A stretch of 64,000 nucleotides of DNA from a virus, in IMG/VR virus record IMGVR_UViG_3300043466_001817, positions 30,096 through 94,095 of that record. One strand, written 5' to 3'. Made by a program: the position numbers and the translations under genes. The notes beneath the pieces are model-generated. The model was given only the letters and a program-made list of their open reading frames with translations, made no database searches and was not told where the DNA came from. Positions 22,931 to 38,237 of this stretch are shown in pieces; positions within the stretch are counted from its first letter, which is position 1; every line of letters begins with the position of its first letter.

Positions 22931-22995
22931 CTACTATCAGGGAGCGCAAATATTATGCAAAAAATCAAAGTTCCTCTGAGGAACTTTGATAGTAG
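22931..22995. repeat. CTACTATCAGG-palindrome element, copy 1
   Basis: ATCAAAGTTCCTC-T-GAGGAACTTTGAT then AGTAG. Confidence 0.9.
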
Positions 22996-23071
22996 CCGGT
23001 ATGTATACAATAGAACAACCCCCGGGCCTGGCTCTCTCCTTCCAGTCCGGGGGCGTTCCTACGGGGATTAC

Positions 23072-25174
23072 TTACTTGCAGGGCAAGCTGTAGATGGCTT
23101 CCGTCCCCCGCTTGAGGGGCTGGCCCGCCACGATGTCCACATACCGGGAGAGGAACACGCGGCTACCGCTGCGCTTCGCCATCGTCTTGACGAAGGTGTT
23201 CTTGACCTTCGTGAAGGTTCCGCTGTCCACGATGGCATCCTCGTCCTTGACGATCTTCGGGGTCTTGACGAGGAAGTACGCATCGTACCCGTGGAAGATC
23301 TCGTCGTGGACAACGATGCAGCCGTCCTTGTACGCCTCCTTCGCAGCAGCGAACCGGGGAGAGGCGGCGAGGTTCTGATACGAACCCCTCTCCTTCGCGG
23401 CCACGCAGTACTGGTAGAAGAACGATTCGGTCAGGGCGTTGGGGCCAACCATCATCCCGACGAGGCGGGCGTTGAACTTCTCACGCAGGGAGTGCAGCAT
23501 GATGCCGACGATCTCGTTGCCCAAGCACGAAGTCATCTCGCGGGAAGGCATCCGGGTGATCGTTCCCGTGATGTTGTTCTGCACCGTCAGCACCCCGTCC
23601 TGACCGACGCTGTACATGGAGTAGATATCGTCGCCCTTCGCGCCACGGATGCCGATGCCGTTGGGCGAACCGTCCGTGATGTGCATGAGCGTGGGGATCT
23701 GAATGTTGTTGGCCTTGATCCACTCCGCGACGAACTGGGACGCGATGGCGACGGCCTCCACCGTGGGCGTACCGCCCAACCGGATCGCAGCGGGCCGCTT
23801 GTTCTGAACGATGGACTCGTAGAGGTAGGCCATGACCTTCTCGCGCTTGTCCGCACCGTCCCGCGACGAGGCAATGTTGATGAGGCGGGCCTCGTTGAGC
23901 GTGAGGGTGTTCATCTGCTGTCCGACGATCTTCGGCTCAAACATCCTGCTGAAGTCGCTGTAGTACTTCGTGGGGTTCTTCTTGCGCCACTCATCGAACT
24001 TGCCGCCGTGGAACGCGGCCTGATTCACTTCGGTGTAGCCGAACACCTCAAAGGGGATCTTCGCCTTCTCGCAGAACCAAACCAACTGGCAGACCTGAAG
24101 GAAGCAGTCCGACAGAGAGTGCTGCATCGACCCGCTGAAGTCCATGAGGAACACGATGCCGTGGTTCTTGCCGTCCTGCTTGACGATCTTGGAAAGGAAG
24201 ATATCGTCGTGGGTGCGGTACTGGTGGAGGCGGTCAAGGTTCAACTGGCCCGTCTGCTTGGGCCGCTCCTTGCGGATCGCGTCCGCTGCCTTGCGGCGCT
24301 CAAACTGCATGACGAGCTGCCGAACGAACGAATCGGAGTCCTTGACGAACTGGCGGTAGCCGGTCAGATCGACCTGCGGGTACGAGGTCTGCTTCTCAAA
24401 CTCGTCAAAGATGTAATCCGTGGGGACGATGGCAGCGTTGACATCCTCCAACATGGGGATGACAACCGTGGGCGAGTGAACCTTCGGGCCGGACTTCTTG
24501 CCGTGGCCCGCGATGTCAGTCTCCACGATCCCGTCCTGCATGGCTTCGGTGCCGATCGCGTCGGCCTGACCCTGCTGCTGCTCTGCCTTCTCGCGGGCAG
24601 CCTGCATCTGCGGCGACTGGTAGATGATCTTGGCGAGGGCGATGCACTCCTCGAAAGTCTCGCAACCATCGACCGCATCCACGATGGCCTGCTCGTTCTC
24701 GTCCATCGGAACGGTGACGAAACCGGGAACGCCCCACTTGAAGTGGATGTTCACCTTGTTGACGATGTTCGCGTCGGTCAAGTCCATCTTGGCGATGCCG
24801 AACATATCCAAGTCGTTGATCTCCTTGTAGCCCAAGAAGAAGTCGCGGCGGGTGCCGGGGAACTTGTCCTTCATCTTCTTCTCAATGCGGACATCCTCAA
24901 TGACATTGGCGATGCGCTGAAGCAACTCGATGTTGAACCCCTCCGCTTCGGCCTGATCGAACAGCACCTTCGACTGCTCGTAGGGAGTCCACAGGGCGTG
25001 GCTGATCTCATGGGCGACGAGCATGGTCTGCACCGTTTCGGAAACCTTCCAGACGGGCATGACGAGGTGGCGGTTCTCAACATCGAACGACGCGGTGGCG
25101 GCGTTGGCATCGAAGGAGAACGAAATGTTTTCGGAGGCGAGGGCGCGAGCGAAGATGGAGAGAGAAGTGTTCAT
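23072..25174 (-). CDS. CobT-like protein: HExxH peptidase-like N-domain plus vWA domain
   Basis: AHEISHALWT, NVIEDVRIE, MIDAS DFSGSM, GGTP, ITDG; leaderless TTGCAT...TACAAT-N6-ATG. Confidence 0.85.
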   Translation of the reverse strand: MNTSLSIFARALASENISFSFDANAATASFDVENRHLVMPVWKVSETVQTMLVAHEISHALWTPYEQSKVLFDQAEAEGFNIELLQRIANVIEDVRIEKKMKDKFPGTRRDFFLGYKEINDLDMFGIAKMDLTDANIVNKVNIHFKWGVPGFVTVPMDENEQAIVDAVDGCETFEECIALAKIIYQSPQMQAAREKAEQQQGQADAIGTEAMQDGIVETDIAGHGKKSGPKVHSPTVVIPMLEDVNAAIVPTDYIFDEFEKQTSYPQVDLTGYRQFVKDSDSFVRQLVMQFERRKAADAIRKERPKQTGQLNLDRLHQYRTHDDIFLSKIVKQDGKNHGIVFLMDFSGSMQHSLSDCFLQVCQLVWFCEKAKIPFEVFGYTEVNQAAFHGGKFDEWRKKNPTKYYSDFSRMFEPKIVGQQMNTLTLNEARLINIASSRDGADKREKVMAYLYESIVQNKRPAAIRLGGTPTVEAVAIASQFVAEWIKANNIQIPTLMHITDGSPNGIGIRGAKGDDIYSMYSVGQDGVLTVQNNITGTITRMPSREMTSCLGNEIVGIMLHSLREKFNARLVGMMVGPNALTESFFYQYCVAAKERGSYQNLAASPRFAAAKEAYKDGCIVVHDEIFHGYDAYFLVKTPKIVKDEDAIVDSGTFTKVKNTFVKTMAKRSGSRVFLSRYVDIVAGQPLKRGTEAIYSLPCK

Positions 25175-25270
25175 GCGCTCATTGTAGCAGGTCTGTAGGT
25201 GAATGCAACTACTAGGATCGGAAAATGGCAATTCTTTTTTGCGTCCGATAAGGGACCGGCCCCGTCCAGG

Positions 25271-25339
25271 CTACTATCAGGCCGTCAAGCAAATAACACA
25301 AAATTCTCAAAGATTCCTCAGAGGAATCTTTGATAGTAG
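25271..25339. repeat. CTACTATCAGG-palindrome element, copy 2
   Basis: TCAAAGATTCCTC-A-GAGGAATCTTTGA then TAGTAG. Confidence 0.9.
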
Positions 25340-25399
25340 CCCCTGCCTGGAAGATCCCCTGCCCCTTTCGGAGCAGGGGATCTTGTCCTCTGAACAGCA

Positions 25400-25621
25400 T
25401 CAGACCGTGGCCGGTGCGATCAGGGAGGTCAGGTCGTAGACCCCCTTGCTGACCGCGCTCTTGTGATCCTTCAGCACCCAAGTGGGGATGCCCTTCATGT
25501 TGATCGCCTGGGCGACGGCCAGCAGGTCGGCCTTGCTGAAGCTGTCGGTGGGGCGGTTGTGAACCTCCGCGTAGTGCTTGGCGGCGGCGACGAAACGGTT
25601 GCGCTTATTGAGGTACGGCAT
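25400..25621 (-). CDS. Small protein paralogous to the N-terminal domain of the adjacent CobS-like ORF
   Basis: SFSKADLL...IPTWVLKD....SKGVYDL versus SFTRDECL...LPAWLVTD....GRGLYSI; AGGAG RBS. Confidence 0.65.
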   Translation of the reverse strand: MPYLNKRNRFVAAAKHYAEVHNRPTDSFSKADLLAVAQAINMKGIPTWVLKDHKSAVSKGVYDLTSLIAPATV

Positions 25622-25639
25622 TGTCAGAATCTCCTTGTG

Positions 25640-26902
25640 TTAGGCGTTGAGAGCGTAGGAAGTGTCAGTCGGGGCAGCGACAGGCTGCGCCTTCTTGTCC
25701 GCACCCTCCGGCATCGGCAGGATGGTGGGGTCGATCTTGGTGTAGAGGTCGAAGAAAGCCTTCTGCGTGGCGGGGTCGAACCGCGTCAGCGTCAACTTGA
25801 TCGCCTTCTCCTTGTCCGCGAAGATGGCGAACGCCTTGCAGACCTCCTCCAAGCGGCGGGTCGTGATGATGTCATCCAAGCCGCCCTCCTTGAAGCCCAA
25901 GCGGATCGTTTCCGCCCACTTGGTGAGGTACTGGGCGAACTCCTTGTCCTCGCGCCCGTAAGCCTTCATCTTGCGGATGATGATGCGGGCCTCCACGGTG
26001 CGATCCGCGTAGTCCTGCTCAAACCAGTACGAGAAGCGGTCGAGGAAAGCCTCGTTCATCACTCGCGTCCCGACGAAGCGGTCGGACTCGCCCTTGCCCT
26101 TCGTGTTGGCGGTGGCGACGGCGTTGAAGCCGACAGACGGGCGGACATACTGCCCGATCTTCTTGAGGTAGATGCCCTTGCCCTCAAGGACGGGCTGGAG
26201 GCACATCATCCGCTCCGAACCCAAGTCGATCTCGTCCAACAGCAGGATGGCACCCTTCTGCATGGCCTGAACGACGGGGCCGTAGACGAACTTGGTTTCG
26301 CCGTTGACGAGGCGGAAGCCGCCCAACAGATCGTCCTCGTCGGTTTCGGAGGTGATGTTGACGCGGACGCACTCGCGGGCGTTGGCCGCGCAGATCTGCT
26401 CAATCATCGTGGTCTTGCCGTTGCCCGACAGACCCGTGATGTAGATGGGCGCGAACTGCTTGGAGGCGAGGATGGTGGCGATGGTGTCGTAGTGGCCCCA
26501 CGGAACGAAGGTGTCGTTCTTGGAGGGAACGAGCGAGACATCGGACATGGGGAGGACGAGGTTGAAGTTGTTGGTGTTGCTGTTCATGGGCGTAATCTTA
26601 TCACAAGTTTCGGTCGGAGTCAAGTCCACGGAAGGAAGATTCTCAACAATCTTTTGGGGAAATTCGAGGTTCAGGCGGGCACCGGCCACTTCGACTTCGG
26701 GGATGCTGTACAGGCCGCGACCCAGGCGACGAGCCTGATCAGTCACGAGCCAAGCGGGCAGGCACGAGTACGAGACCCGGTGCGTCTGCTTGCAGAGGTT
26801 GAGTGCGGTCAGGCACTCGTCACGGGTGAAAGAGGTGCGAAGCCCGAACGACAGGGCGAGGGATTCGAGGAAGTGCTGCTTACGAAGATCGATGCTGTTC
26901 AT
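25640..26902 (-). CDS. cobS: CobS/MoxR-family AAA+ ATPase (alternative in-frame start at 26587)
   Basis: Walker A GLSGNGKT, Walker B LLLDEID, ATANTKGKG, NEAFLDRF. Confidence 0.9.
   Translation of the reverse strand: MNSIDLRKQHFLESLALSFGLRTSFTRDECLTALNLCKQTHRVSYSCLPAWLVTDQARRLGRGLYSIPEVEVAGARLNLEFPQKIVENLPSVDLTPTETCDKITPMNSNTNNFNLVLPMSDVSLVPSKNDTFVPWGHYDTIATILASKQFAPIYITGLSGNGKTTMIEQICAANARECVRVNITSETDEDDLLGGFRLVNGETKFVYGPVVQAMQKGAILLLDEIDLGSERMMCLQPVLEGKGIYLKKIGQYVRPSVGFNAVATANTKGKGESDRFVGTRVMNEAFLDRFSYWFEQDYADRTVEARIIIRKMKAYGREDKEFAQYLTKWAETIRLGFKEGGLDDIITTRRLEEVCKAFAIFADKEKAIKLTLTRFDPATQKAFFDLYTKIDPTILPMPEGADKKAQPVAAPTDTSYALNA
26595..26623 (-). promoter_or_regulatory. Internal sigma70 promoter for a short leaderless CobS
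   Basis: TTGACT-N17-TAAGAT-N7-ATG(26587). Confidence 0.7.
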
Positions 26903-27015
26903 GAGAACATTGTAATCTATGAGGCGAAGATTGCAAGACCAATCTTCCATTATTCTCAAGATTGTCTCCAGGTCCGATAACCGGCCCCAGAGTCTGGTGC
27001 TGTCCGTTCTGTCCA

Positions 27016-27083
27016 CTACTATCAGGGAAATAATATAATATCTCGGAAAAAATCAAAGACCGCCTGGCGGTCTTTGATAGTAG
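27016..27083. repeat. CTACTATCAGG-palindrome element, copy 3
   Basis: ATCAAAGACCGCC-T-GGCGGTCTTTGAT then AGTAG. Confidence 0.9.
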
Positions 27084-27087
27084 TGGC

Positions 27088-27119
27088 AAATAAAAACCCC
27101 CAGCCTAGCAACTGGGGGT
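27088..27119 (-). terminator. Rho-independent terminator
   Basis: ACCCCCAG..CTGGGGGT followed by a T-rich run on the minus strand. Confidence 0.75.
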
Positions 27120-27158
27120 CGGAGGAACATCCTCCTTGAAGAAAGAAACGAACCTGAA

Positions 27159-27503
27159 TCAGCCCTTCAGGTACTCCGAAGCCGGGCCACTCTTGCAGCA
27201 GCCGGTACCATCGTTGTAGTAGGACTTCTTGCAGTCCTTGTTCTCGTTGTGGCACTTCTCCCACAGAACATCAACCTCGCGGTGCAGTTGCTCACGGGAG
27301 CCTTCCATCTCGCGCTTGAGTTCCGCAATCTTCTCGTTGCAGGAACGACCGCAGGCAAGCACCTCGTCAATTACATACCGCTCGCTGGCCTCCGTGTAGG
27401 TACGGATGCTGCGAATCTTGTTGTCGATGTAGTTCTTGACGATCAGGCCGCAAGCAAGCACACCGAAGGCGACGGCAAAGATCAAAGCGTAGTTCTCGTT
27501 CAT
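27159..27503 (-). CDS. Membrane-anchored coiled-coil protein
   Basis: N-terminal hydrophobic helix; TTGACA/TATAAT promoter and AGGAG. Confidence 0.65.
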   Translation of the reverse strand: MNENYALIFAVAFGVLACGLIVKNYIDNKIRSIRTYTEASERYVIDEVLACGRSCNEKIAELKREMEGSREQLHREVDVLWEKCHNENKDCKKSYYNDGTGCCKSGPASEYLKG

Positions 27504-27562
27504 CTGAATCTCCTTGTTGTTGGTGGTATTATACCACCTGGTTGTGGGTTGTCAAGTCTGAA

Positions 27563-27646
27563 TAGGACGGGTGAGATTCGAACTCACGGTGCATAAAGCG
27601 GGCAATTATAAGTCGCCTGCTGCTCTCCATCGCAGCACGCCGTCCT
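27563..27646 (-). tRNA. Atypical tRNA-Ile(UAU) with extended variable region
   Basis: GGCGA-CTTATAA-TTGCC; acceptor AGGACGG/CCGTCCT; T-arm GTGAG-TTCGAAT-CTCAC. Confidence 0.72.
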
Positions 27647-27793
27647 GTGTGAAGCCTTTTTACGGATGCTCCTTTGTCCGTGCATTCGCAGAATGCCTCT
27701 GTGCGGTTTTATGACTACCGCCAAAACTTATAATATAATCTGCATTGTGTTTCTCAATAGTGCATTGTAGCACCTCTTTGTTCTGTGTCAAGG

Positions 27794-27867
27794 CGTTTCC
27801 GGGGGGACTCGAACCCTCAACCTGCCGCTTAGAAGGCGGCTGCTCTATCCGGTTGAGCTACGGAAAC
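27794..27867 (-). tRNA. tRNA-Arg(UCU)
   Basis: GCCGC-CTTCTAA-GCGGC. Confidence 0.93.
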
Positions 27868-27960
27868 ATTCGGAAGGAGTACTCTACGGTCTAGGGAATC
27901 CCATTTTCCGACTTTTCGTCCTTCCTTATTGGATGAACTTGAAGAAGTCCATCTCGTTAG

Positions 27961-28045
27961 TGGGATTGGTGGGACTTGAACCCACAAGACTTTTGAGGTC
28001 GGCAGATTTTGAGTCTGCTGCGTATGCCGATTCCGCCACAATCCC
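27961..28045 (-). tRNA. tRNA-Leu(CAA)
   Basis: GCAGA-CTCAAAA-TCTGC, long variable arm; own TTGACA-N17-TATAAT promoter. Confidence 0.93.
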
Positions 28046-28060
28046 GATGCGCCCATTATA

Positions 28061-28336
28061 TCACACTATGGGCGGGTTGTCAACCCTATCTTCTAGGGAG
28101 AATTTTTCTTCAATTTCCTCGAAGAATTCCGAATTGGCTCGGACCACCTGCTCATGGAGCCGGTCAACGTTGAGGCATTGGGCTGCGTTGTCCACCTCAT
28201 CGAAGTACTGATTGATCAGTTCCTTCGGCGGGTTGCCGTTGCCATGGAGAATGTGTTCCATGATGCGGTCTGCGACAATGACCACGCGGTCATAAGCCTG
28301 GAGCGAGCTGATGTAGTGCTGTTCTGAAATCTTCAT
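28061..28336 (-). CDS. Hypothetical protein
   Basis: AGGAGG RBS after tRNA-Lys. Confidence 0.6.
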   Translation of the reverse strand: MKISEQHYISSLQAYDRVVIVADRIMEHILHGNGNPPKELINQYFDEVDNAAQCLNVDRLHEQVVRANSEFFEEIEEKFSLEDRVDNPPIV

Positions 28337-28350
28337 AGTGTCCTCCTGAA

Positions 28351-28423
28351 TGCCTCCGGTGGGGTTCGAACCCACGACCAATAGATTAAAAGTCTACTGC
28401 GCTACCAACTGCGCTACAGAGGC
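28351..28423 (-). tRNA. tRNA-Lys(UUU)
   Basis: TAGA-CTTTTAA-TCTA; own TTGACT-N17-TATAAT promoter. Confidence 0.93.
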
Positions 28424-28462
28424 GAGATGCCCATTATATCCGATGGGCGCGGTGAAGTCAAG

Positions 28463-28858
28463 TCAGTCCTTGTCGTTGTTTCCCAGTTCCTCTTCGATGT
28501 CGTTGATGTACTCCCGCCGGTCGTGGGGGAAGTGCTTGCGCTCCAACTCGCCCGCGAACTCGTCGTAGGTCATGGACATCATGTCGCCCAAGAGCATCAT
28601 GAACGCCGCGTCACCTGCCGTGACATCCTTCGGACGCTCGTTGCGCTCCTTCGCATCCGCGAGTTCCTGGGTCGCGTAGGCCATCGCAGCGGAGGCGACG
28701 AGGCGGAGCTTCTGATCCTTGAAGAAGGTCGGGTTCCGCATCACCAGTTCCACGAGGCTGTAGATCACCTCGTGGATGCTGGGCTTGAACTGCTCCATCA
28801 TGGGGTGCGGCTCGTTGTTGTCGAAGAAGTTGCTGAAGTTGTTCGTCGGGTCAGGCAT
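28463..28858 (-). CDS. Hypothetical early protein
   Basis: GC3-biased ORF. Confidence 0.65.
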   Translation of the reverse strand: MPDPTNNFSNFFDNNEPHPMMEQFKPSIHEVIYSLVELVMRNPTFFKDQKLRLVASAAMAYATQELADAKERNERPKDVTAGDAAFMMLLGDMMSMTYDEFAGELERKHFPHDRREYINDIEEELGNNDKD

Positions 28859-29081
28859 TGTTGGCTTCCTTGATCTGTGCGTGAAGGTTGAGGATGAACT
28901 CGTACTCGTCGTCGGTGGTCATGTCGGGGTCGGCCATCTTGGTCAGCATCACATACGCTGACCCCATTCGCATCACCTTCTCCGGGTCGGTGTCCCAGTC
29001 CGGGTTAGCGAAGATGAAGTCGGAGATGCTGTTCAGCAGGTCGCTGACATTGCAGGTGGTGGGCTTCTTGGGCTTGTTCAT
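28851..29081 (-). CDS. Hypothetical early protein, leaderless
   Basis: TTGACA-N17-TACAAT-N6-ATG. Confidence 0.65.
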   Translation of the reverse strand: MNKPKKPTTCNVSDLLNSISDFIFANPDWDTDPEKVMRMGSAYVMLTKMADPDMTTDDEYEFILNLHAQIKEANNA

Positions 29082-29099
29082 GGTGGTATTGTACCGAAG

Positions 29100-29429
29100 T
29101 CAGAGGGGGCTGTCAAGCAGGGAATAGTCGATATTCGAAACAGAAACCTCGAGGCCCCAATGCTCCAAAGTTTTCTTCATATCGTCCACGAAAGTCAACT
29201 GGAGCATCGGGTCGCAGTCGAAGTTGAGACAGGCGGTGATCATGCAGAACTCGTTCGCAATGTCGAACTGGAAGGTGGGGTTCTGTCCACGGGTCACGGC
29301 GTACCTATCGTCCGCAAAGTTCCATGCATGAAGGTAAGCGTTCGACATCTCCTTGAGGCGCATGGTAGCCCAAGACCGGCTCCGTGCCGTCTTGTGCATA
29401 ACGACGGTGATGTTGCTGTAGAGTGCCAT
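29100..29429 (-). CDS. Hypothetical early protein
   Basis: Coupled (TGATG) to upstream gene. Confidence 0.6.
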   Translation of the reverse strand: MALYSNITVVMHKTARSRSWATMRLKEMSNAYLHAWNFADDRYAVTRGQNPTFQFDIANEFCMITACLNFDCDPMLQLTFVDDMKKTLEHWGLEVSVSNIDYSLLDSPL

Positions 29430-29665
29430 CAGTCGAAGTCCTCGTCATCCACGAAGTCAGATGCGTCGAAGTCGCTCATCTCCGGGATGTCATCGTCGTG
29501 TTCGGTGTAGTCATCGTCCGCGTCGTAGAGGCCGATCATGCGGCGAGCCTCCGCTTCGCTGTAGCCTTCGGCCATCAACTCTTCGATGGCCTCCTCGTCG
29601 GTCATCTCCTCAATGGCGTGGTCGTACTGATCGTCGGTGTTGTCGAAGTCGTTGTCAATGTCCAT
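29429..29665 (-). CDS. Extremely acidic small protein, leaderless
   Basis: TTGCAT-N16-TATACT-N6-ATG; D/E-dominated. Confidence 0.7.
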   Translation of the reverse strand: MDIDNDFDNTDDQYDHAIEEMTDEEAIEELMAEGYSEAEARRMIGLYDADDDYTEHDDDIPEMSDFDASDFVDDEDFD

Positions 29666-29759
29666 GCGCGCAGTATAGCCTATACCGGCGGGGATGCAAG
29701 CGGTAGCATCCAAGAAAACGAAATATATTTTGCGTCCCATAACGTCCAGGTGGTCCGGG

Positions 29760-29822
29760 CTACTATCAGGCGGCGGCCGGTCCTATAAGAAATCAAAAAT
29801 GCCTGGGCATTTTTGATAGTAG
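29760..29822. repeat. CTACTATCAGG-palindrome element, copy 4
   Basis: ATCAAAAATGCC-TG-GGCATTTTTGAT then AGTAG. Confidence 0.9.
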
Positions 29823-29963
29823 TCAAATAAAATGCCCCACCTTGAAGAAGGTGGGGCGTGGGAGCTACCGTCCAAACTCCCGCGTTTCTCCGCACAGCGC
29901 TGTACGGATCTTTTTTATGCCGCTTGTGGCCACACAGGGCATCCGGTTTTGATGGTTTGGGCG

Positions 29964-30197
29964 TTAGTCCTTGAACTCGCATCCCGTCACGACATAGCGA
30001 AGTCCGCCAAGCGTGAAGGTCAGGGTGAACGCGCAGAAGTACATCACGCCAGCGCAGAAGAGTCCGACTGCGTTGAGCAGCCACGAAATGTCGTTGGGGG
30101 CGAGGAATGCGTAGGTAAAGATCATCGGGAGGAACCACGCCGCAATCAGGACGAGGGCACCGATGAAACGGTCGATGTAGGAGGTGGTGAGGTTCAT
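29964..30197 (-). CDS. Small two-helix membrane protein, leaderless
   Basis: TTGACA-N17-TACAAT-N6-ATG; two hydrophobic segments. Confidence 0.65.
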   Translation of the reverse strand: MNLTTSYIDRFIGALVLIAAWFLPMIFTYAFLAPNDISWLLNAVGLFCAGVMYFCAFTLTFTLGGLRYVVTGCEFKD

Positions 30198-30228
30198 GGG
30201 AGTATTGTACCTGGGTTGCAGGCGAATG

Positions 30229-30528
30229 TCAAGCCCAGTTCAGCATCTTCTCCGTCTTGGGCGAGAATCCCATGATCCCGGTGATCTTGTCCTCACCGAT
30301 CAGGATCCAGTCCTTCTTGGTGATGTCGAAGGCGCAGATGTAGCCTTCGGTGGTGTGACGGAGGCCCTTCGGCAGATTGCCGCCGAGGTGACGGATGAAG
30401 GTCGCGTCCGTAGTGACCTCACGGGCAGCGGGAGTGCCGTCCTTCTTCGTGAAAGTGACCATCACGGTGTCGTTGTTGGAGAGCGAAACGCGGAGGACGG
30501 TAGCGAGAGGCAGGTCGGTGGTGTTCAT
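30229..30528 (-). CDS. SH3/WYL-like beta-barrel protein (DUF2693-like), leaderless
   Basis: VTFTKKDGT.A.R..T...AFDITKKDW. Confidence 0.6.
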   Translation of the reverse strand: MNTTDLPLATVLRVSLSNNDTVMVTFTKKDGTPAAREVTTDATFIRHLGGNLPKGLRHTTEGYICAFDITKKDWILIGEDKITGIMGFSPKTEKMLNWA

Positions 30529-30638
30529 GTGAGTATTGTAGCCGGTTGGGGGTGAAAGTCAAGAGGGAAAGAAAGATTTTTTGGTGGTTTCGGGAGGGGG
30601 CGGTAACTCAACCCCCTCCCATCATGCACCACCATGAT

Positions 30639-31040
30639 TTACTGGATCAGGTCCTGCGCGGTGGGGACGCCCTGCTTCTCGAACTTCTCCGCTTCGGCCT
30701 GGAGGATCTCGAAGAACAACTTCGGGCACTTCATCTGCAAGGCGGTGATGTTCTCACCGTTGTCCCCCGCGAGGATCGCGTCCCCGACGAGCGGCTGCTT
30801 GCAGATGATGGAGGCGCGGGTGTTGAAGCGCGGGTTGTCGATGCACAGACCCTCCTCATCGATCCACATCATCGAATCCTCGATGTGGTTCAGCGGGACG
30901 CTGATCGGCTGCACGAGGCGGCACGACATGATCGGGTACATCGACTCCAACGGGTTGTCGGCGTTCAGTTCCACGACGCGGACGGGCTGGTTGATGTCGG
31001 CGGGGATCAGGATGGCGGGGATGGTGGTGATGTTCGACAC
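30639..31040 (-). CDS. DUF3846-like protein
   Basis: LIPAD...MWIDEEGL...FNTRAS...LVGDAILAG; GTG start with AGGAG. Confidence 0.65.
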   Translation of the reverse strand: MSNITTIPAILIPADINQPVRVVELNADNPLESMYPIMSCRLVQPISVPLNHIEDSMMWIDEEGLCIDNPRFNTRASIICKQPLVGDAILAGDNGENITALQMKCPKLFFEILQAEAEKFEKQGVPTAQDLIQ

Positions 31041-31187
31041 GGTGGTGACTCCTGCCCCTGTGGGGCAACTGGGTGATACGCGAATTGTAGCAGGTTGGCT
31101 GGCGATTGCAAGTAGGTAGGTCGCGATTCGAAAGATTTATTTCTTTCCTCGTACCGGCCACAGGGCTCGAGCCCGTCCAGGTGGGCG

Positions 31188-31245
31188 CTACTATCAGGCG
31201 GCGTCCAATAAAATCAGAGGGCCCTAGAGGGCCCTCTGATAGTAG
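31188..31245. repeat. CTACTATCAGG-palindrome element, copy 5
   Basis: ATCAGAGGGCCCT-AG-AGGGCCCTCTGAT then AGTAG. Confidence 0.9.
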
Positions 31246-31396
31246 CCCGAGGGGCTGGCTCAAACTTCTCGAGCCAGTTCCCTCTTTCCCTCCCTCCGCG
31301 CCATCCGAGGGTCGCGGCTCTTCTTGCCCCAAGTCTTGGGGCGGAGCCGGATGCCTTCACGGAAAGCGTCGTGGACGAACTTGCCTGGGCGGTGCT

Positions 31397-31642
31397 TCAT
31401 CGTGTCTCCTCTAGGTCGATCAGGGCGGAATCAATCTTGATCTGAAGGCGGCGAATCGTGTCGCGCTCCGCCTTCGCTTCAGCGTAGAACGCATCATGAG
31501 CTGCGGTTTCCCGGTAGGTGTTCATTTCACGCAGCACATCCACCATAGCGGTGAACATGAAACGGGAAATAATTTCCATTTCGCGCTTCGACAATTCCAC
31601 CTGCATGGCGGGCTTGCGAATTGGCTTGAGGGTGGTGATCAT
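31397..31642 (-). CDS. Hypothetical early protein, leaderless
   Basis: TTGACA-N17-TAAGAT-N6-ATG. Confidence 0.65.
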   Translation of the reverse strand: MITTLKPIRKPAMQVELSKREMEIISRFMFTAMVDVLREMNTYRETAAHDAFYAEAKAERDTIRRLQIKIDSALIDLEETR

Positions 31643-31691
31643 GGTGGTATCTTACCTTCCTGTCCTGTCCCTGTCAATAGGGTAGGGCGGA

Positions 31692-32312
31692 TTACTCCGC
31701 CTTTCCCCTGATGATGATCCACAGAAGCGCCTGCATGTCGGCGGCGGGCATGTTCCACGAATCGGCCATGAGCCGAACGGCAGCGGCGATGGCACGGTAC
31801 TCAACGGCGCTGGGCGCATCCTTCGGCTGGCCAGCGTACTTCGACTTCGGCCCGTAGGTGAGGCCGGCAGCGCGGCACATCCAAATGTCGATCACGACCG
31901 CATCGGGGTCGCCGCCGATGGCACGGGCGAACGCGTTCGTCTTCGGCCCGCGCAGGCCGTCGAAGCCTTCGCGCTGGCAACGGTCCGCAGCGTCCAGCGC
32001 CGAACGCAGGCCCGCAGGGCGCTGGCCCATAGCGTACTCGGCGGCCTTGCGCTTGTTGAGCGCCCAAGTAACGCGGGGCGAGAATGCCGACACGACGCTA
32101 GCGGACACTTCGAGCGTCCACGACGGCGCGATGGTGCAGAGCGATTCCGCGAACGCGTTCGCGTCGCAGTACCATGTGCCCGCCCGCTTGATGTCGGCGG
32201 GCGTGGCCGACGCCAGCAGGGTACGGAAGCGGCCTTCGGCCTCAACGCGGACGGCGGACATGCGGGCGAGGGTAGCGGCGGACGGCTGACGGGTGGTGGT
32301 GGTGGTGATCAT
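31692..32312 (-). CDS. DUF7178-like protein (HhH glycosylase-like fold), leaderless
   Basis: GTWY..AN, SAFSPR..W..N, GPKTNAF, VVIDIWM, MQALLW. Confidence 0.6.
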   Translation of the reverse strand: MITTTTTRQPSAATLARMSAVRVEAEGRFRTLLASATPADIKRAGTWYCDANAFAESLCTIAPSWTLEVSASVVSAFSPRVTWALNKRKAAEYAMGQRPAGLRSALDAADRCQREGFDGLRGPKTNAFARAIGGDPDAVVIDIWMCRAAGLTYGPKSKYAGQPKDAPSAVEYRAIAAAVRLMADSWNMPAADMQALLWIIIRGKAE

Positions 32313-32422
32313 GCGGTAATTGTAACCGAATGGCTACAGAATGCAATAGGGTAGCCCGCTGAAACGCAAAGAATAATTATTCATCGCGGTGCATAGTTAT
32401 GCAGGGCGTCCAGGTCGTCCGG

Positions 32423-32475
32423 CTACTATCAGGCCGTCCAATAAAATCAAGATCGCCGGGCGATCTTGATAGTAG
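32423..32475. repeat. CTACTATCAGG-palindrome element, copy 6
   Basis: ATCAAGATCGCC-G-GGCGATCTTGAT then AGTAG. Confidence 0.9.
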
Positions 32476-32547
32476 CCCACAAACAACCTAGCCCCGAGCT
32501 AATCGGGGCAGGGACGAATCCTCTTCGGTTGTAAGAGCACCACCTCT

Positions 32548-32814
32548 TTAGTCTGTGGCCGGTGCGAGTGCCGCCTCCTGTCCGACGCGGATTCCTGCGC
32601 GGAATGCGTGGATCAGTTCCAGCAGTTCCCGCTTGCTGCGGTAGCCGGGGAAGATGGCGATGCAGGCTCCGTGGGGGCCGACGAGTTGCTGTAGTTGCCA
32701 TCCGCCGTATGCGCCCTGGAGGTAGTACGCACCTGGCGTGGCAGCGGTCGCCCCGACGAGTTGGTTCAGGACGCGGGTGGCGGCTTCAAGGTCGCGGATC
32801 GTGGTGTGCTTCAT
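32548..32814 (-). CDS. Conserved phage early protein
   Basis: TIRDLE...LN...YYLQGAYGGWQL...GYRSKREL. Confidence 0.6.
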   Translation of the reverse strand: MKHTTIRDLEAATRVLNQLVGATAATPGAYYLQGAYGGWQLQQLVGPHGACIAIFPGYRSKRELLELIHAFRAGIRVGQEAALAPATD

Positions 32815-32903
32815 AGTGTGAACCTTACTGTATCGGGGGGCGGGAATCAAGGGGGCAGGAAAGATTTTTTACTTTCTTTCCTGCCCCCCACCGGGGGCTT
32901 GGG

Positions 32904-33308
32904 TTAGATGGTCACGGAGCGGAGGGGGCGCGTCGGGGCGCGGTCGGCCTGCTTCGAGGCCGTGTCGCGTCCGTCGATCCAGTTAGCCGCAGCGAGGAGG
33001 CCGTAGGCGACGGCCCGCATCTCGTTCGCGGTGCAGGAGCAGCCCGCCCGCTCATCGAAGGCACCGAAGAGGTTGAACGACGCCATCCGGTGGTTGGGCG
33101 ACGAGAGGACGCGGACGGCGTAGGGGCCGACCGGGATCATGAACGCCGCAGCCGACTCGTGGTCGAAGCGGATGCGGGTGTAGTTGCTGCGGTTGCTGAT
33201 CGTGCAGTCGCTGATGCGGTTCTCGCGCTCGTTGCTGCGGAGGTTGTCAACGGAGCGCGACGGGCTGAACACGATGTCGGTGGCGCAGGAGAAGGTGGTG
33301 GTGGTCAT
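32904..33308 (-). CDS. Hypothetical early protein
   Basis: AGGAG-N8-ATG. Confidence 0.6.
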   Translation of the reverse strand: MTTTTFSCATDIVFSPSRSVDNLRSNERENRISDCTISNRSNYTRIRFDHESAAAFMIPVGPYAVRVLSSPNHRMASFNLFGAFDERAGCSCTANEMRAVAYGLLAAANWIDGRDTASKQADRAPTRPLRSVTI

Positions 33309-33340
33309 GGTAGATGCTCCTAGTGAGAGGGGTGCGATTG

Positions 33341-33532
33341 TCAAGCGGTAACGCAAGATTCTGCGCGAAACTTTGCCTTGCTCCAGCGCGGGTCGGCATC
33401 GTACCCGTTGGTGAGGAGCAGGTAGCGGAACTCCTCAATGGCCTGGGCCTTGGAGTCAGCGCGAACCGTGGTGGAGTGAATGATGCCGCCGAGGGTGCAG
33501 GTGACGCGGAAGAGTTGGGTGGTGCTGTTCAT
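33341..33532 (-). CDS. Small early protein, leaderless
   Basis: TTGACT-N16-TACCAT-N6-ATG. Confidence 0.6.
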   Translation of the reverse strand: MNSTTQLFRVTCTLGGIIHSTTVRADSKAQAIEEFRYLLLTNGYDADPRWSKAKFRAESCVTA

Positions 33533-33678
33533 GCGTGTATGGTAGCGAATCTACAATGGAAGTCAATACCCTTTCTCAAATATTTCTCGAGCGCCCCCAG
33601 GCGACCGATAACCTACCGGCAGAAATATTTGAGAAAGGGTATTGACTTCGATAGCAAACTTGCTACCATTAGCGCATG
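33530..33678. promoter_or_regulatory. Mirror-symmetric divergent promoter pair with a 29-bp perfect inverted repeat
   Basis: 33559-33587 is the reverse complement of 33621-33649; -10 boxes and ATGs are equidistant from the axis. Confidence 0.9.
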
Positions 33679-33894
33679 GACACCACCCACACCGATTCGC
33701 CCGACAACTTCCCCTGCCAGTGCCACCTGTCGAAGTACGCCTACGAGGACGCGCTCTGCCCCGAGTGCGAGGAGCGGGAGCGGCAGCTCGAAGCCCAGGT
33801 GGAGGCCGAAGCGCTGCGCGCCGAGGCCATGGAGGAGAGGGACTGGGACGCCGATAACGATTGGCTCGCCTCAGCGGGCTGGGGCGAGATGTGA
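33676..33894 (+). CDS. Small acidic protein with CxC..CxxC, leaderless
   Basis: TTGACT-N16-TACCAT-N6-ATG. Confidence 0.65.
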   Translation: MDTTHTDSPDNFPCQCHLSKYAYEDALCPECEERERQLEAQVEAEALRAEAMEERDWDADNDWLASAGWGEM

Positions 33895-33965
33895 GCCCCA
33901 AATAAATCTTCAAACTTCCACCGGCCACCCTTGACATGGGGTGGTCGGTGTGCTAATATGCGCGC

Positions 33966-34133
33966 ATGATCACCACCGACGGTAACGATGAAACCCCCCG
34001 CAAGTACACCGATGGCGAGTACCGGCTGCGGCCCGAGTACCAGGAGGAGCAACACAGCGCCTGTTGGGAGGACCGCTACGGGCCCGACTACGATGACTGC
34101 GACGAGGGCCCTGACTGGGAGGGCGATGACTGA
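33966..34133 (+). CDS. 55-aa acidic protein, leaderless (not in ORF track)
   Basis: TTGACA-N17-TAATAT-N6-ATG; MITTDGNDETPRKY...DWEGDD. Confidence 0.65.
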   Translation: MITTDGNDETPRKYTDGEYRLRPEYQEEQHSACWEDRYGPDYDDCDEGPDWEGDD

Positions 34134-34206
34134 GCCCAGGAAATAAATCGTCAAATTTCCACCGCTACCCCTTGCAACCGAGGGGGCGGTGTGCTATCAT
34201 ACGCGT

Positions 34207-34353
34207 ATGGAAAGCACCACCAACATCGAAGAAACCCCCCGCACCCCGATGGTCATCAATCTGGCCAAGCGCAACGCGAATCCCGATGAGGAGCGGGAAT
34301 TCGCGGAGGGACCGGATGAGGACACCTACTGGGACTGGTACTGGGGCCAGTAA
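34207..34353 (+). CDS. 48-aa acidic, Trp-rich protein, leaderless (not in ORF track)
   Basis: TTGCAA-N17-TATCAT-N6-ATG; MESTTNIEE...DTYWDWYWGQ. Confidence 0.65.
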   Translation: MESTTNIEETPRTPMVINLAKRNANPDEEREFAEGPDEDTYWDWYWGQ

Positions 34354-34363
34354 CCCCCCAGGC

Positions 34364-34401
34364 ACTCAGAGGCCCCCGCAAGGGGGCCTCTGAGTTTATT
34401 T
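34364..34401 (+). terminator. Rho-independent terminator
   Basis: ACTCAGAGGCCCCC-GCAA-GGGGGCCTCTGAGT then TTATTT. Confidence 0.85.
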
Positions 34402-34792
34402 GATAATCTTTCCAACCGGCCCTTGACAGCATGGGTCGGTTGTGCTATAGGCAGGGGGGGGGTAGGGGTGCCCAAGGAGTCTGACGGAAGTTGCAGCAAA
34501 GGTTCGTTTGGTGCAAGGGGGGTGGGGTCTCAGCGCCGTGTCCAAACAGTATTTTGGGTCCCCTTTGGGATTTGGAACGTTCGAGGGGCCAGCACCCACC
34601 CCCTCTAATATTCTTTAAATTTTCTCAAATATTTTCAAATATATTCAAAGTTCCTCAAATATTCTCAAAGTCATCTGTCCACTCAATTTAAAAACGACCC
34701 CCTACCTCTAAAAACCATGTATGGTCAAAAAAATTTTTGGGCGCAAAAAGGCTCTAAAAGGTTCACTATAAATATTCTTTTAAGGAGATATC

Positions 34793-35044: not shown

Positions 35045-35587
35045 TTATTTTTTCTTCTTTGATTCTTCTTCTCTTTTGATTGAACCAAGAACTCTATCCC
35101 ATACGAGTTCTTGTGCGTGGGGATGAATTTCTCCACTTGGCGTACCAAGATCAATTACATCTTCATTTCCCCAGTGTGGATTGCCTTTCTCCGGGTAGAT
35201 TACGGGTGGCATGAATTCGGGACCAATTTTTTCAATTGCATCCTTTACACTTGTAAATGGATTTTTTGTAAAATATTTATCAGTAGTCAATTTCTTGAAC
35301 ATGTCTTCTTTGGATTTTTTTTTGTCGTAACTGTGAGATCCAAGATTACGATCAACGTGAGGAGCAACGTCTGAGTGATGTCTTGCAATCAAATCTGAAA
35401 TTTGATTATGTAGTTGCATTGCTTGTTGCCCTGCTGCAACTTCTGCTGAACTACCAGTTTTATCGGCATCTGGACCGTCAAAATTATCTGGTGTTAGATT
35501 TGCGTTTTCAACCAATCTTTGGAGATGATTGACTCTTTGTTGTAGTTGTTCGGATAGATTCTTGTAGTAATTTGTTAAGTAGTTCAT
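35045..35587 (-). CDS. Late protein with MNYLTNYYKNL N-terminus
   Basis: TAAATA-N5-ATG; N-terminus shared with the 21650 gene. Confidence 0.6.
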   Translation of the reverse strand: MNYLTNYYKNLSEQLQQRVNHLQRLVENANLTPDNFDGPDADKTGSSAEVAAGQQAMQLHNQISDLIARHHSDVAPHVDRNLGSHSYDKKKSKEDMFKKLTTDKYFTKNPFTSVKDAIEKIGPEFMPPVIYPEKGNPHWGNEDVIDLGTPSGEIHPHAQELVWDRVLGSIKREEESKKKK

Positions 35588-35595
35588 AAATTTAT

Positions 35596-35799
35596 TTATT
35601 CCTGTTCTAATGTCTGTGCGTGTTCCATTTCAGATTTAACAGAAGACTTTGCTTGTCTTGAAATTTGTTCAGTCTTCTTTGTGTCTTTTGACACCGTTAC
35701 AGCATCTCTTCTGGCTTTTTTTTCTAAAAACTCCGGGTCGGATGTTGTTGATCCCTCTGGGACCACTTGTTCGCGTAAATAATCTTTAAAAGATTTCAT
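35596..35799 (-). CDS. Putative internal head protein
   Basis: MKSFKDYLRE. Confidence 0.55.
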   Translation of the reverse strand: MKSFKDYLREQVVPEGSTTSDPEFLEKKARRDAVTVSKDTKKTEQISRQAKSSVKSEMEHAQTLEQE

Positions 35800-35817
35800 T
35801 TTTGTCTATTTCTTTTA

Positions 35818-37131
35818 TTATGATCTTTTGCCCAAAGTCAATATGTCATTTATTGTATTTTGTAGACCTTTACCTAAATTTTTTGGGGGAGGTTGAATTC
35901 CCATCCATTCAATTTGATCATTGCCATATTGATTTTGGACTTGGTTCATTACTTGTGGCATTGATCCGGGCATGATTGCAGTTCTTTGTGTTGGAACTTG
36001 TTGTGGTTGTTGTTGAACAACTGATAGGTTTTTATTGACATTTTCCATTCCACCAGATGGAACGATTGTTTGCTTTTGTGCCACTTGATTTTGTGGTCCT
36101 TGCTTTTGAGCTACTTGATTGTTCCAAGCATTGATCTCTTCTGGAGATTGACCTCTCATTCCAAAAGCACCCCAATTTTGTTGTTGTGGTTGTGCTGCTG
36201 GGGCGGGTGTTTGTTGTTGAGCAGGTGCCGGTTGTTGTGTCGGTACAACTCTTTCAGTTGGAGACTTCCAATATTCTCCTTCGACTGGTTCTGGTTGCTG
36301 TGGTTGTGTTTTTACACGAGCAGGCGCAGTGTTTTGTGATTTGTTTTGATATGCTGGCAAGTAACTTTGTACATAACCGCTCTGGTCCATTTGATAGACG
36401 CCACCGGGTTGCATTGCTTGTTGATTAAATTGCGCTGGACTTGGACGATTTGATACAGAAACATTTCCGGGCATGTATGTTGCTGGGTTGTTTGGGTCAC
36501 CCATTGGAATTGTTTCTTGACTCAATCTTGTACCAGATTGTTTTCCTGCAACTTTAAGATAGTCTTGAATATCACTTTCTGGTGTGACTCCAGTATTCTT
36601 TGCTGGGGCGGTAGGAGTAACATTTGAAGGAAGCCCTCTTCTGATATCATCAAGGGCCTTCATTATTCCACCAGAATATTGAGCGTACTTGTTTGGTTTT
36701 GTTCCTGTGCCTGCTTTGGTGAAATCAAATCCTTGAGTTGGTACGTTGGGAGTTACGCCTCTTCTGACATCATCAATGGCTTTCATGATTCCACCAGCCA
36801 TTTGTGCAAATTGATTTGGTTTTGTACCTGTGCCTGCTTGAGTAAAATTAAAACCTTGATTTGCTGAAGGAGCAGCGGACGCAGCAGGTGCCTGAGCAGT
36901 GTTCTGCGGCGACATATTAAACAAATTCATTATTGTATTTTGAAGATTTCCTTGTTGCTGTGCCGCAGGAGGATTTTGCAATTGATTCATTATGCTTGGC
37001 ATAGAACCGGGCATAATTGGTGTTCTGCCAGAAGATTTTTTCTTATCTTCGTTCAATTCATTTTTAATTTGATGCAATTTTGCGGCAGCATCATGGATAT
37101 TGTTTGAAAAAATTAAATGGTCATTAAACAT
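35818..37131 (-). CDS. Gln/Pro-rich low-complexity late protein with internal duplication
   Basis: QGF.FT.AGTGTKPN..AQ..GGIMKA.DD.RRG twice; TATAAATA-N5-ATG. Confidence 0.6.
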   Translation of the reverse strand: MFNDHLIFSNNIHDAAAKLHQIKNELNEDKKKSSGRTPIMPGSMPSIMNQLQNPPAAQQQGNLQNTIMNLFNMSPQNTAQAPAASAAPSANQGFNFTQAGTGTKPNQFAQMAGGIMKAIDDVRRGVTPNVPTQGFDFTKAGTGTKPNKYAQYSGGIMKALDDIRRGLPSNVTPTAPAKNTGVTPESDIQDYLKVAGKQSGTRLSQETIPMGDPNNPATYMPGNVSVSNRPSPAQFNQQAMQPGGVYQMDQSGYVQSYLPAYQNKSQNTAPARVKTQPQQPEPVEGEYWKSPTERVVPTQQPAPAQQQTPAPAAQPQQQNWGAFGMRGQSPEEINAWNNQVAQKQGPQNQVAQKQTIVPSGGMENVNKNLSVVQQQPQQVPTQRTAIMPGSMPQVMNQVQNQYGNDQIEWMGIQPPPKNLGKGLQNTINDILTLGKRS

Positions 37132-37139
37132 GCAAATAT

Positions 37140-38135
37140 TTATACATTTGCATGTTCTTTGCTCCCTGAAAAATTAATAAACTTTACATCAGTCTGTTCT
37201 TTGATGTAGTATTTGATGAAATCTTTCATGACCACAATATCCTCAAAATTTACCAATGCCCCCTCATATTTCAGCCGGAATGTTCCGACACTCTCAAGCA
37301 CATCACACTTGTTGATATAAAGTTCTGTGCAACCTGAAAGTTTAATGGCAGCGATAAGTTTATCCAAATTTAGCCAGTTCACCAGACGCTTGCGCCCAGT
37401 TGTCGAACCAAATTCCTGACCTTCCTCAATTATCTGGTTGAGGATCTTGTCTTCCCACAGCGACTCTGGAAAGAGTGGATCAACACCACTCTTGGTGTCA
37501 TAGATCTTGGCGACACCGATCAGTCGTTCGATCTTTTTTGGCGAGAAGCCGAGCGAGCAGGCACTATAAGGCATAGTTGAACTGCTGGTGACATATGGAT
37601 AATCTCCGTGATCAATGTCAAGCCAGACACTTTGAGCGCCTTCACAAAGGATGCGGCCTTTGAGTTCTCCGTCCCAAAGGAAATTTTGCGAAAAAACATC
37701 CTCGGCCCGTTTCCCTTTTCGAAGCATCTTATCAGCATAGCAAGGAGCGATGCCTTGACCAGTTGTTCCAAGTTTACCTTTTAGGTTGTTCAAATCATAT
37801 TCGATGTGATCATCTGTAATGATATGGGCCTTTGGAGAAACTTTTACAAGTCCGATGTCAAATCCGTTTTTGTTCAAGTAACTGAGTTCTTGATAAAATT
37901 TATCAACATGAAGAACACAACCGGGACCAATAATTGATGGCTTATCTTGAAAAATACCACACGGAATAATGTGTGTCTTGTATTTTACATTGTTGATCCA
38001 GACCGTATGACCTGCGTTGGGACCGCCATTCCAACGACAAACCATATCGTAGTCTTTAGCAATTGCGTTCGAGATCTTTCCCTTGCCCTCGTCACCCCAA
38101 GCAAGGCCGTAAATAATATCAACAGATTTAATCAT
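37140..38135 (-). CDS. purA: Adenylosuccinate synthetase (short form)
   Basis: WGDEGKGK, GGPNAGHT, GTTGQGIAP, EGAQ, YPYVTSS, GSTTGRKR. Confidence 0.92.
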   Translation of the reverse strand: MIKSVDIIYGLAWGDEGKGKISNAIAKDYDMVCRWNGGPNAGHTVWINNVKYKTHIIPCGIFQDKPSIIGPGCVLHVDKFYQELSYLNKNGFDIGLVKVSPKAHIITDDHIEYDLNNLKGKLGTTGQGIAPCYADKMLRKGKRAEDVFSQNFLWDGELKGRILCEGAQSVWLDIDHGDYPYVTSSSTMPYSACSLGFSPKKIERLIGVAKIYDTKSGVDPLFPESLWEDKILNQIIEEGQEFGSTTGRKRLVNWLNLDKLIAAIKLSGCTELYINKCDVLESVGTFRLKYEGALVNFEDIVVMKDFIKYYIKEQTDVKFINFSGSKEHANV

Positions 38136-38148
38136 AAAAAGTTCCAAA

Positions 38149-38221
38149 CTCTCCGAACTGGATTCGAACCAGTGACATGAAAGTTAACAGCTTTCCGCTC
38201 TACCTACTGAGCTATCGGAGA
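38149..38221 (-). tRNA. tRNA-Asn(GUU)
   Basis: GAAAG-CTGTTAA-CTTTC. Confidence 0.93.
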
Positions 38222-38237
38222 AGGTATAAATATTTAT

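Follow-up and report, generated by a model that had tools for sequence, protein, structure and literature searches.

Near the right end of a GC-rich island in a phage genome, two predicted promoters stand back to back in a mirrored arrangement, raising the question of what the symmetric DNA between them does and how its symmetry is kept. The locus, here called the hub, lies in the window, a stretch of 64,000 nt that forms the final 64 kb of a 94,095-nt virus record (G000) amounting to about 50% of a genome by CheckV. The record encodes the T4-type proteins family-B polymerase gp43, UvsX, gp41 helicase, gp61 primase and gp32, together with ribonucleotide reductase (RNR) and a baseplate wedge protein. 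The nearest cultured phages by polymerase are cyanomyoviruses, at just 42% identity. Judged by these genes, the phage is an uncultured T4-like myovirus. Its genome is ~35% GC except for a block at ~22950–34450 of 55–69% GC (the 11.5-kb island), which contains cobS, a cobT-like gene, four tRNAs and many small genes. Using a conserved 72-aa zinc-ribbon protein encoded beside the hub, we found 21 further IMG/VR contigs (38–55% protein identity). All 21 step from GC-rich to AT-rich DNA ~1 kb to the right of the zinc-ribbon gene, and the GC-rich island is therefore a lineage trait. A chimeric assembly was rejected, as the step is identical in all 21 contigs and these come from different samples. 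Half of the contigs terminate within the island, suggesting assembly breakage there.

The elements of the hub and its flanks are as follows.

33521–33687, unstranded: whole imperfect palindrome, with 67-nt arms that are 84% complementary and include the ATG-AxC-ACC-ACC gene starts
33539–33544, minus strand: left −10, TACCAT, 6 nt before the ATG and without a TG extension
33561–33566, minus strand: left −35, TTGACT, with a 16-nt spacer to the −10
33559–33587, unstranded: left perfect arm, 29 nt, holding the −35, two nt of the spacer and, at about −40 to −55, a stretch rich in A/T
33588–33620, unstranded: asymmetric 33-nt core, without internal mirror symmetry
33603–33612, minus strand: upstream box GTTATCGGTC, which precedes the left −35 by 36 nt; its centre falls near −75 relative to the left start
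33621–33649, unstranded: right perfect arm, exact reverse complement of the left arm
33642–33647, plus strand: right −35, TTGACT, found by consensus scan
33662–33669, plus strand: right extended −10, TGcTACCAT, with its TG at 33661–33662, 6 nt before the ATG
33341–33532, minus strand: leftward 63-aa gene, codon-position GC 0.52/0.52/0.78, its ATG reading as CAT at 33530–33532 on the plus strand
33676–33894, plus strand: rightward 72-aa zinc-ribbon-like gene, with FPCQCH...CPEC and C-terminal DWDADNDWLASAGWGEM
34364–34395, plus strand: strong intrinsic terminator, with a 14-bp stem, 10 GC pairs and a T run, closing the 0.7-kb rightward unit

These positions bear out the geometry claimed in an earlier note on this DNA. 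The inverted 29-nt arms are exact, CCGATAACC lies inside the 33-nt core at 33605–33613, and TTGACT is present in both arms. The −10 boxes are equidistant (TACCAT at 33664–33669 on the plus strand, matching that on the minus strand), as are the start codons, the axis falling at 33604, 72 nt from each ATG (33676 on the plus strand, 33532 on the minus). A repeat finder returned the larger imperfect palindrome (33521–33587 and 33621–33687, with 33 nt between the arms), and the symmetry thus takes in the −10 boxes and the opening codons of both genes. This outer part arises because both flanking genes begin ATG-AxC-ACC-ACC, a start common to most island genes. By our own arithmetic, chance would place a perfect inverted repeat of 29 nt, with its copies within 100 nt, ~1e-11 times in 64 kb. 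The folding energy of the 167-nt element as single-stranded DNA is −53 kcal/mol, versus −16 in shuffles (z = −13.5), and no other divergent junction in the window has a comparable palindrome. Rfam gave only sub-threshold microRNA-hairpin look-alikes at the hub and no known RNA; folding of the non-coding stretch 34452–34605 was no better than that of shuffles. Cruciform extrusion requires prior melting of a palindrome centre, and a cruciform in double-stranded DNA was judged unlikely, as the 33-nt GC-rich centre would have to melt first.

An independent consensus scan scored both hub promoters at 9/12 matches with a 16-nt spacer, and found 8 promoter-like sites in the hub region versus 1.6 in shuffles. 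Hexamers resembling −35 and −10 elements lie 16–18 nt apart on both strands, as in sigma70-type promoters, and these elements are conserved in ~18 relatives while the surrounding bases vary. On its sequence, the hub is thus a pair of divergent sigma70-type promoters, which most likely serve early genes. Primary-sigma polymerase normally initiates ~7 nt after the −10. Each hub ATG begins 7 nt past the last −10 base, a 6-nt gap with no room for a Shine-Dalgarno sequence, and the mRNAs are therefore probably leaderless. The same fixed 6-nt gap in 12 island promoters suggests that transcription starts on the A of each hub start codon. Going by sequence, the hub promoters would be early, leaderless and active.

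The leaderless design is characteristic of the island as a whole. The pattern TTGnnn-N16–18-TAnnnT-N6-ATG occurs 12 times in its 11.5 kb versus 0.06 in shuffles, and outside the island 8 times versus 4.2 expected. Nearly every island gene has its own promoter copy of this type, and the hub is therefore not a master promoter. The proposal that it is the organising centre of early transcription does not hold, given at least 12 island genes with their own promoter of the same design and about seven other strand switches in the genome. It had also been proposed that genes diverge from the hub across the entire island. By codon-position GC, the credible genes on the left are indeed all on the minus strand and three genes on the right are on the plus strand, but the rightward set spans only ~0.7 kb and the genes at 35045–38222 run leftward again. 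The hub is instead the point where one-gene units change direction.

The right arm drives just three tiny genes (72, 55 and 48 aa). The first, the zinc-ribbon gene, is conserved in all relatives used, and the closest relatives of its product (P0002–P0005) are 56–83% identical. The leftward 63-aa gene has four homologue clusters (P0121–P0124; 62–64 aa, 59–98% identity) and no Pfam family; a search with its protein returned a second assembly of the phage (G001) alone. The zinc-ribbon protein has an invariant DWDADNDWLASAGWGEM tail at its C-terminus. Its last ~30 residues also end a 55-aa ORF (L040:2360–2527) beside purM in VGXR01000011.1, a 74% GC contig of a Planctomycetota MAG. The shared tail could point to the host, or the phage could be mimicking the end of a host protein. 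A 56-nt cassette, 77% identical between its two copies, is shared by the promoters of the 55-aa gene (33900–33965) and the 48-aa gene (34141–34206). Each cassette contains a stem that covaries between the two copies, with the −35 in its loop, and is preceded by AAATAAATCnTCAAAyTTCCACCG. A word very like this one, reversed, occurs in the hub core of L014, L024 and L030.

Across the island, G001 (IMGVR_UViG_3300044627_002952) matches G000 at ~94% identity, rising to 100% for 251 nt at the hub. The two have zero differences in a 1.15-kb block (33291–34440) that covers the left gene, the hub and the three right genes, whereas the DNA immediately to the left is 7–18% diverged. Because the hub lies inside this block, its perfect identity says little about selection. 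The block edges coincide with a promoter and with a terminator/promoter at 34364–34450, and the block looks like a recently exchanged module whose transfer was mediated by cassettes. Megablast of the hub region and tblastn of a neighbouring 1307-aa protein, both against GenBank phages, gave no match, and a metagenome scan with a 22-nt arm word gave just two matches, both unrelated chance hits.

A divergent pair directly upstream of the zinc-ribbon gene was found in ~18 relatives, that is, in every related contig with enough upstream sequence; some are near-duplicates, leaving about a dozen distinct hubs. In these, each ATG is six nt from a −10 (seven nt in L028), both sides have a −35 and the axis is exactly midway, while the left divergent gene is not the same throughout. 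The ATG-to-ATG gaps are quantised at 106/107, 113/114, 126 and 143/144 nt. In compact hubs (106/107 nt), symmetry is limited to the promoter hexamers and a central A/T palindrome, GAAAGAAAT-ATTTCTTTC, which is near-perfect and exactly on the axis in at least seven relatives. Hubs with the 106-nt gap have neither long arms nor an upstream box, and thus neither is needed for a divergent pair. The long form (143/144 nt) is present in the window, L011/L017 and L018/L022. Here each side has its own A/T stretch and −35, within near-perfect arms of 29–34 nt that flank an asymmetric 33–34-nt core. A pattern search (arm end, box, arm start) for additional long-armed hubs returned only the five already known. 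Of the symmetry described by the earlier note, then, the mirror geometry is kept in ~18 relatives, but long perfect arms occur in three lineages only.

Among the three long-armed lineages, arms differ at many positions yet are complementary within each. Arm columns pair in 5/5 of the 143/144-nt forms. Over the whole paired region of the five-sequence alignment, 82% of cells pair and 24 pairs have changed on both sides. None of 500 shuffles reached the observed values and no slid register came close. One or two fresh arm mismatches each in L011 and L018 are absent from their sister sequences. Arms that vary between lineages but stay complementary indicate concerted evolution, and we infer that arm identity is upheld by hairpin-templated correction or gene conversion, by selection, or by both. 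Template switching at quasipalindromes is an established mechanism, and correction of imperfect inverted repeats is a mutational hotspot (PMC7202029). The perfect arm spans ~−55 to −28 relative to the predicted start and thus comprises the UP-element position plus the −35; the duplicated unit is therefore an upstream polymerase-contact module. Each long arm ends in self-complementary AGAAAT(A)TTTCT.

The core contains a directional element. Read on the other strand, CCGATAACC is the lineage-wide upstream box GTTATSGGWC (generalised as GTTMTVGGWC). CCGATAACC occurs 6 times in the window versus 0.25 expected, with 6/6 in the island, and the upstream box 6 times versus 0.84 expected, again all within the island. 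Across the window and relatives, GTTMTVGGWC lies 23 or 33–36 nt upstream of the −35 of leaderless promoters. In the window it precedes the left hub promoter, the cobS promoter (26972–26981) and a site at 29734–29743, the latter two with the same spacing as at the hub; a copy with one mismatch lies upstream of the cobT-like gene. The two spacings are offset by roughly one turn of the helix, a feature of activator sites, and the box is a candidate site for a putative transcription factor.

Box copies also occur at island borders. Four copies of CCGATAACC, three in one direction and one in the other, lie within 130 nt at the non-coding left border (22663–22795), along with repeated CCGTCC words and without an evident promoter. 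The box may therefore have a non-transcriptional role as well, and the cluster could represent factor-binding iterons, a boundary element or an origin. The right border in relatives has a single conserved box, after which come GGGCTAGCCCC and a run rich in A/T that includes words resembling TTCTCAAATATTCT; in the window, the corresponding border (34600–34680) has the A/T words and lacks the box. The right-border boxes of relatives are at the following contig positions.

L014: 2979
L017: 7017
L018: 6759
L021: 1749
L022: 1941
L023: 6697
L024: 6398
L025: 6691
L030: 3893

Between lineages, the core box faces different promoters. The window has it on the minus strand at a distance of 36 nt from the left −35; L011, L017, L018 and L022 have it on the plus strand, at the same distance from the right −35. 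The layout of the core (8-nt, 10-nt and 15–16-nt parts) is the same in all five. The window core aligns to those of relatives only when reverse-complemented (P ~0.01–0.035 versus shuffles); in direct orientation the alignment is no better than random. A box on opposite strands at equal spacing implies that the core flipped between lineages, and a single flip of the loop between inverted arms appears to be the simplest account. The window core also resembles the region upstream of its own cobS promoter, and exchange of a cassette therefore fits as well as inversion does. There are only three independent long-armed lineages, one with the flip against two without, and the box arrangement could alternatively have been built independently from a box cassette. 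The suggestion that the core is invertible thus gains support from the directional box on the opposite strand in relatives, but lacks a recombinase in 94 kb (about half a genome) and meets three close pairs that each have a single orientation. The inversion looks like an evolutionary flip rather than a demonstrated switch.

Collectively, we consider the hub best explained, with good though not full confidence, as a divergent pair of host-sigma promoters in which the arms act as a polymerase-contact module, the core carries a one-sided box and the core was flipped in evolution. According to this explanation, host RNA polymerase with its primary sigma factor would read both back-to-back promoters in the GC-rich early region. 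Each promoter, arranged as TTGACT, 16 nt, TACCAT, 6 nt and ATG, would start transcription on the A and yield a leaderless mRNA. Each 29-nt arm would supply a UP-like A/T stretch (~−55 to −40) and the −35 hexamer for contact with RNA polymerase, and its two copies would be kept identical by concerted evolution. The 33-nt core would serve one side, positioning GTTATSGGWC near −75 of the leftward promoter as a putative factor site. The flip of the core between the arms would probably have been a hairpin or template-switch event and not the work of a recombinase; hairpin-mediated inversions of 4–50 bp are described as established (PMC12371153).

Two alternatives concern the arms and what they enclose. 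The arms might be kept so that the 33-nt box flips within the population, an invertase-free form of phase variation. Such a switch would agree with the box on opposite strands of different lineages at the same 36-nt spacing, with arms that stay perfect while their sequence drifts between lineages, and with the UvsX recombinase encoded by the phage. It is nonetheless improbable: no serine or tyrosine recombinase was found in 94 kb (~50% of the genome), where searches for Resolvase and Phage_integrase domains had no match; the close pairs G000/G001, L011/L017 and L018/L022 each show a single orientation; and compact hubs have nothing to flip. A 33-bp segment is also far too short for synapsis by known invertases. 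We regard as similarly unlikely the corollary that invertase-free flipping gives the phage population two early-expression states, boosting either the left or the right unit. A different proposal, that arm identity is functionless, a by-product of inverted duplication of the promoter module followed by quasi-palindrome homogenisation, is doubtful as a full account but deserves more weight. Template-switch correction of imperfect inverted repeats is a known hotspot (PMC7202029), the fresh mismatches in L011 and L018 fit drift followed by correction, and compact hubs function without long arms; the exact mirror geometry across the lineage and the conserved box are left unexplained. This reading is compatible with the divergent-promoter explanation and is not a full alternative to it.

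The palindrome could otherwise be an operator, contacted by a regulator in dimeric or tetrameric form, either at the two identical arms or, in compact hubs, at the central A/T palindrome, so as to switch both promoters off or on together. One site for both units would be economical, at least seven compact-hub relatives keep a near-perfect axial A/T palindrome, and the long arms have their self-complementary ends. An operator is unlikely all the same, because the covarying parts of the arm, from the A/T stretch to the −35 and into the spacer, differ between lineages, so that a sequence-specific protein would need to co-evolve. The A/T stretch moreover sits at the UP-element position, where the alpha subunit of RNA polymerase makes contact, making an extra factor superfluous, and the island proteins tested yielded no recognisable DNA-binding domain. 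Very unlikely is a T4-type replication origin at or overlapping the hub, primed by a promoter transcript and with the box or palindrome binding an initiator. T4 origins, oriF and oriG among them, depend on promoters, the symmetric centre of the hub is A/T-rich and flanked by strong promoters, and the four boxes at the left border of the island form an iteron-like cluster. Against this, GC skew, which the earlier note had suggested computing, keeps its sign across the hub (+0.09, +0.12 and +0.03 for 30–36 kb); the strand switch is local, with genes leftward again from 35 kb; the window core is GC-rich and not easily melted; and the box recurs elsewhere at promoter-locked distances. No initiator gene was recognised nearby and no DnaA box was seen by eye at the hub. 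The further idea of a genome end at this site was discarded, as both assemblies (G000 and G001) and ~18 relatives read straight through, and the contig ends of relatives are scattered over the whole island and not at the hub.

Among known systems, the promoters of the island come closest to the promoter-early stem-loop (PeSL) cassettes described in T4-type phages (Arbiol et al. 2010, PMC2839356; Comeau et al. 2014, PMC4122927). As in the PeSL descriptions, the island has repeated sigma70-type early promoters that are A/T-rich upstream of the −35 and overlap stem-loops (PMC2839356), and these precede small uncharacterised genes within a variable part of a T4-like genome (PMC2839356, PMC4122927). 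The promoters at 33966 and 34207 have such a stem, which covaries and has the −35 as its loop. PeSL cassettes are reported to mediate gene shuffling (PMC2839356, PMC4122927); the zero-difference block at 33291–34440 is likewise bounded by cassettes, and a left gene that varies among relatives fits such shuffling. The hub itself departs from this type. PeSL units as described have a stem-loop that terminates upstream transcription, a Shine-Dalgarno sequence with a leader and a start codon, and are tandem in the same direction, whereas the hub has an ATG 6 nt after the −10 without a Shine-Dalgarno sequence and consists of a back-to-back mirrored pair. Term searches of PMC2839356 and PMC4122927 found no back-to-back or palindromic promoter pair. 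In contrast to PeSL, the hub stem is the two promoters themselves, with no transcript expected across it, and a far-upstream box is added. With its 33-nt loop, no T run and nothing transcribed toward it, this stem is not a terminator.

Bacterial bidirectional promoters based on −10 symmetry resemble the hub in transcribing divergently from pseudo-symmetric DNA. Their starts are reported to be 7–25 bp apart, usually 18 (Warman et al. 2021, as cited in PMC10268837; PMC12825309), and because they share one −10 region they accommodate one polymerase at a time (PMC10268837). The predicted starts of the hub are 144 bp apart (107 in the compact form), and it consists instead of two separate, complete promoters.

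Invertons flip ~150 bp or more by means of a dedicated recombinase, with the promoter inside the segment. Inverted repeats flank a directional regulatory piece both in these (fimS, Hin/hix and the invertible promoters of Bacteroides) and in the hub. Unlike invertons, the hub has a 33-bp segment and promoters in its arms, and no dedicated serine or tyrosine recombinase was found in the 94-kb record, ~half a genome. Another parallel to the flip is offered by hairpin-associated minute inversions in non-coding plastid DNA, which involve loops of 4–50 bp (Kelchner and Wendel 1996, as cited in PMC12371153). There, as at the hub, inverted repeats enclose a short loop whose orientation varies among related genomes without a recombinase. 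The plastid inversions are treated as neutral, whereas the hub loop carries a conserved, positioned box upstream of a promoter, and its flip should therefore change regulation.

T4-like phages of uncultured hosts are abundant, and control of their early genes is known almost solely from coliphages. The lineage described here is organised differently in its early region, where each small gene has its own predicted leaderless promoter of host type, all within a GC-rich block of an AT-rich genome, with a conserved far-upstream box hinting at a factor, and a base-exact mirrored pair with arms evolving in concert. Alone, the hub is a regulatory detail and no new kind of system. What makes it interesting is the base-exact mirror layout kept throughout the lineage, together with arms that evolve in concert and a directional box that has flipped. 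These make it a natural test case of how strong divergent promoters share or duplicate upstream contacts, how a perfect inverted repeat is kept up and whether a small directional element can be re-aimed by flipping. It also provides ready-made parts in the form of a symmetric promoter pair and a box. Were invertase-free flipping of the box true, it would represent a new recombinase-free regulatory inversion in a virus, tied to an early factor that reads GTTATSGGWC.

Several other features of the record were observed. A permuted (two-piece) tmRNA that passes the Rfam gathering score lies beside a tRNA-Pro at window positions 6736–7016 on the minus strand. Outside the window, the first 200 nt of G000 lie within a long collagen-like Gly-X-Y repeat with GGNACTGGTGCC-type units; the record thus opens inside this repeat and is a fragment cut within a fibre-like gene. 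The island contains a DUF7178 gene (206 aa; window 31692–32312, minus strand) whose homologues in the phage collection are only from Mycobacterium, Rhodococcus and Gordonia phages and one phage of Tunturiibacter, an acidobacterium (31–36% identity), affinities unlike those of the cyanophage-like replication genes of the record. To the right of the island, at 37140–38147 on the minus strand, is a short (335 aa) homologue of adenylosuccinate synthetase. Its phage matches are mostly to Vibrio, Arthrobacter, Microbacterium, Gordonia and Streptomyces phages (31–39% identity), groups known to carry PurZ for 2-aminoadenine DNA. Bacterial purA scores similarly, making the protein a candidate PurZ or PurA.
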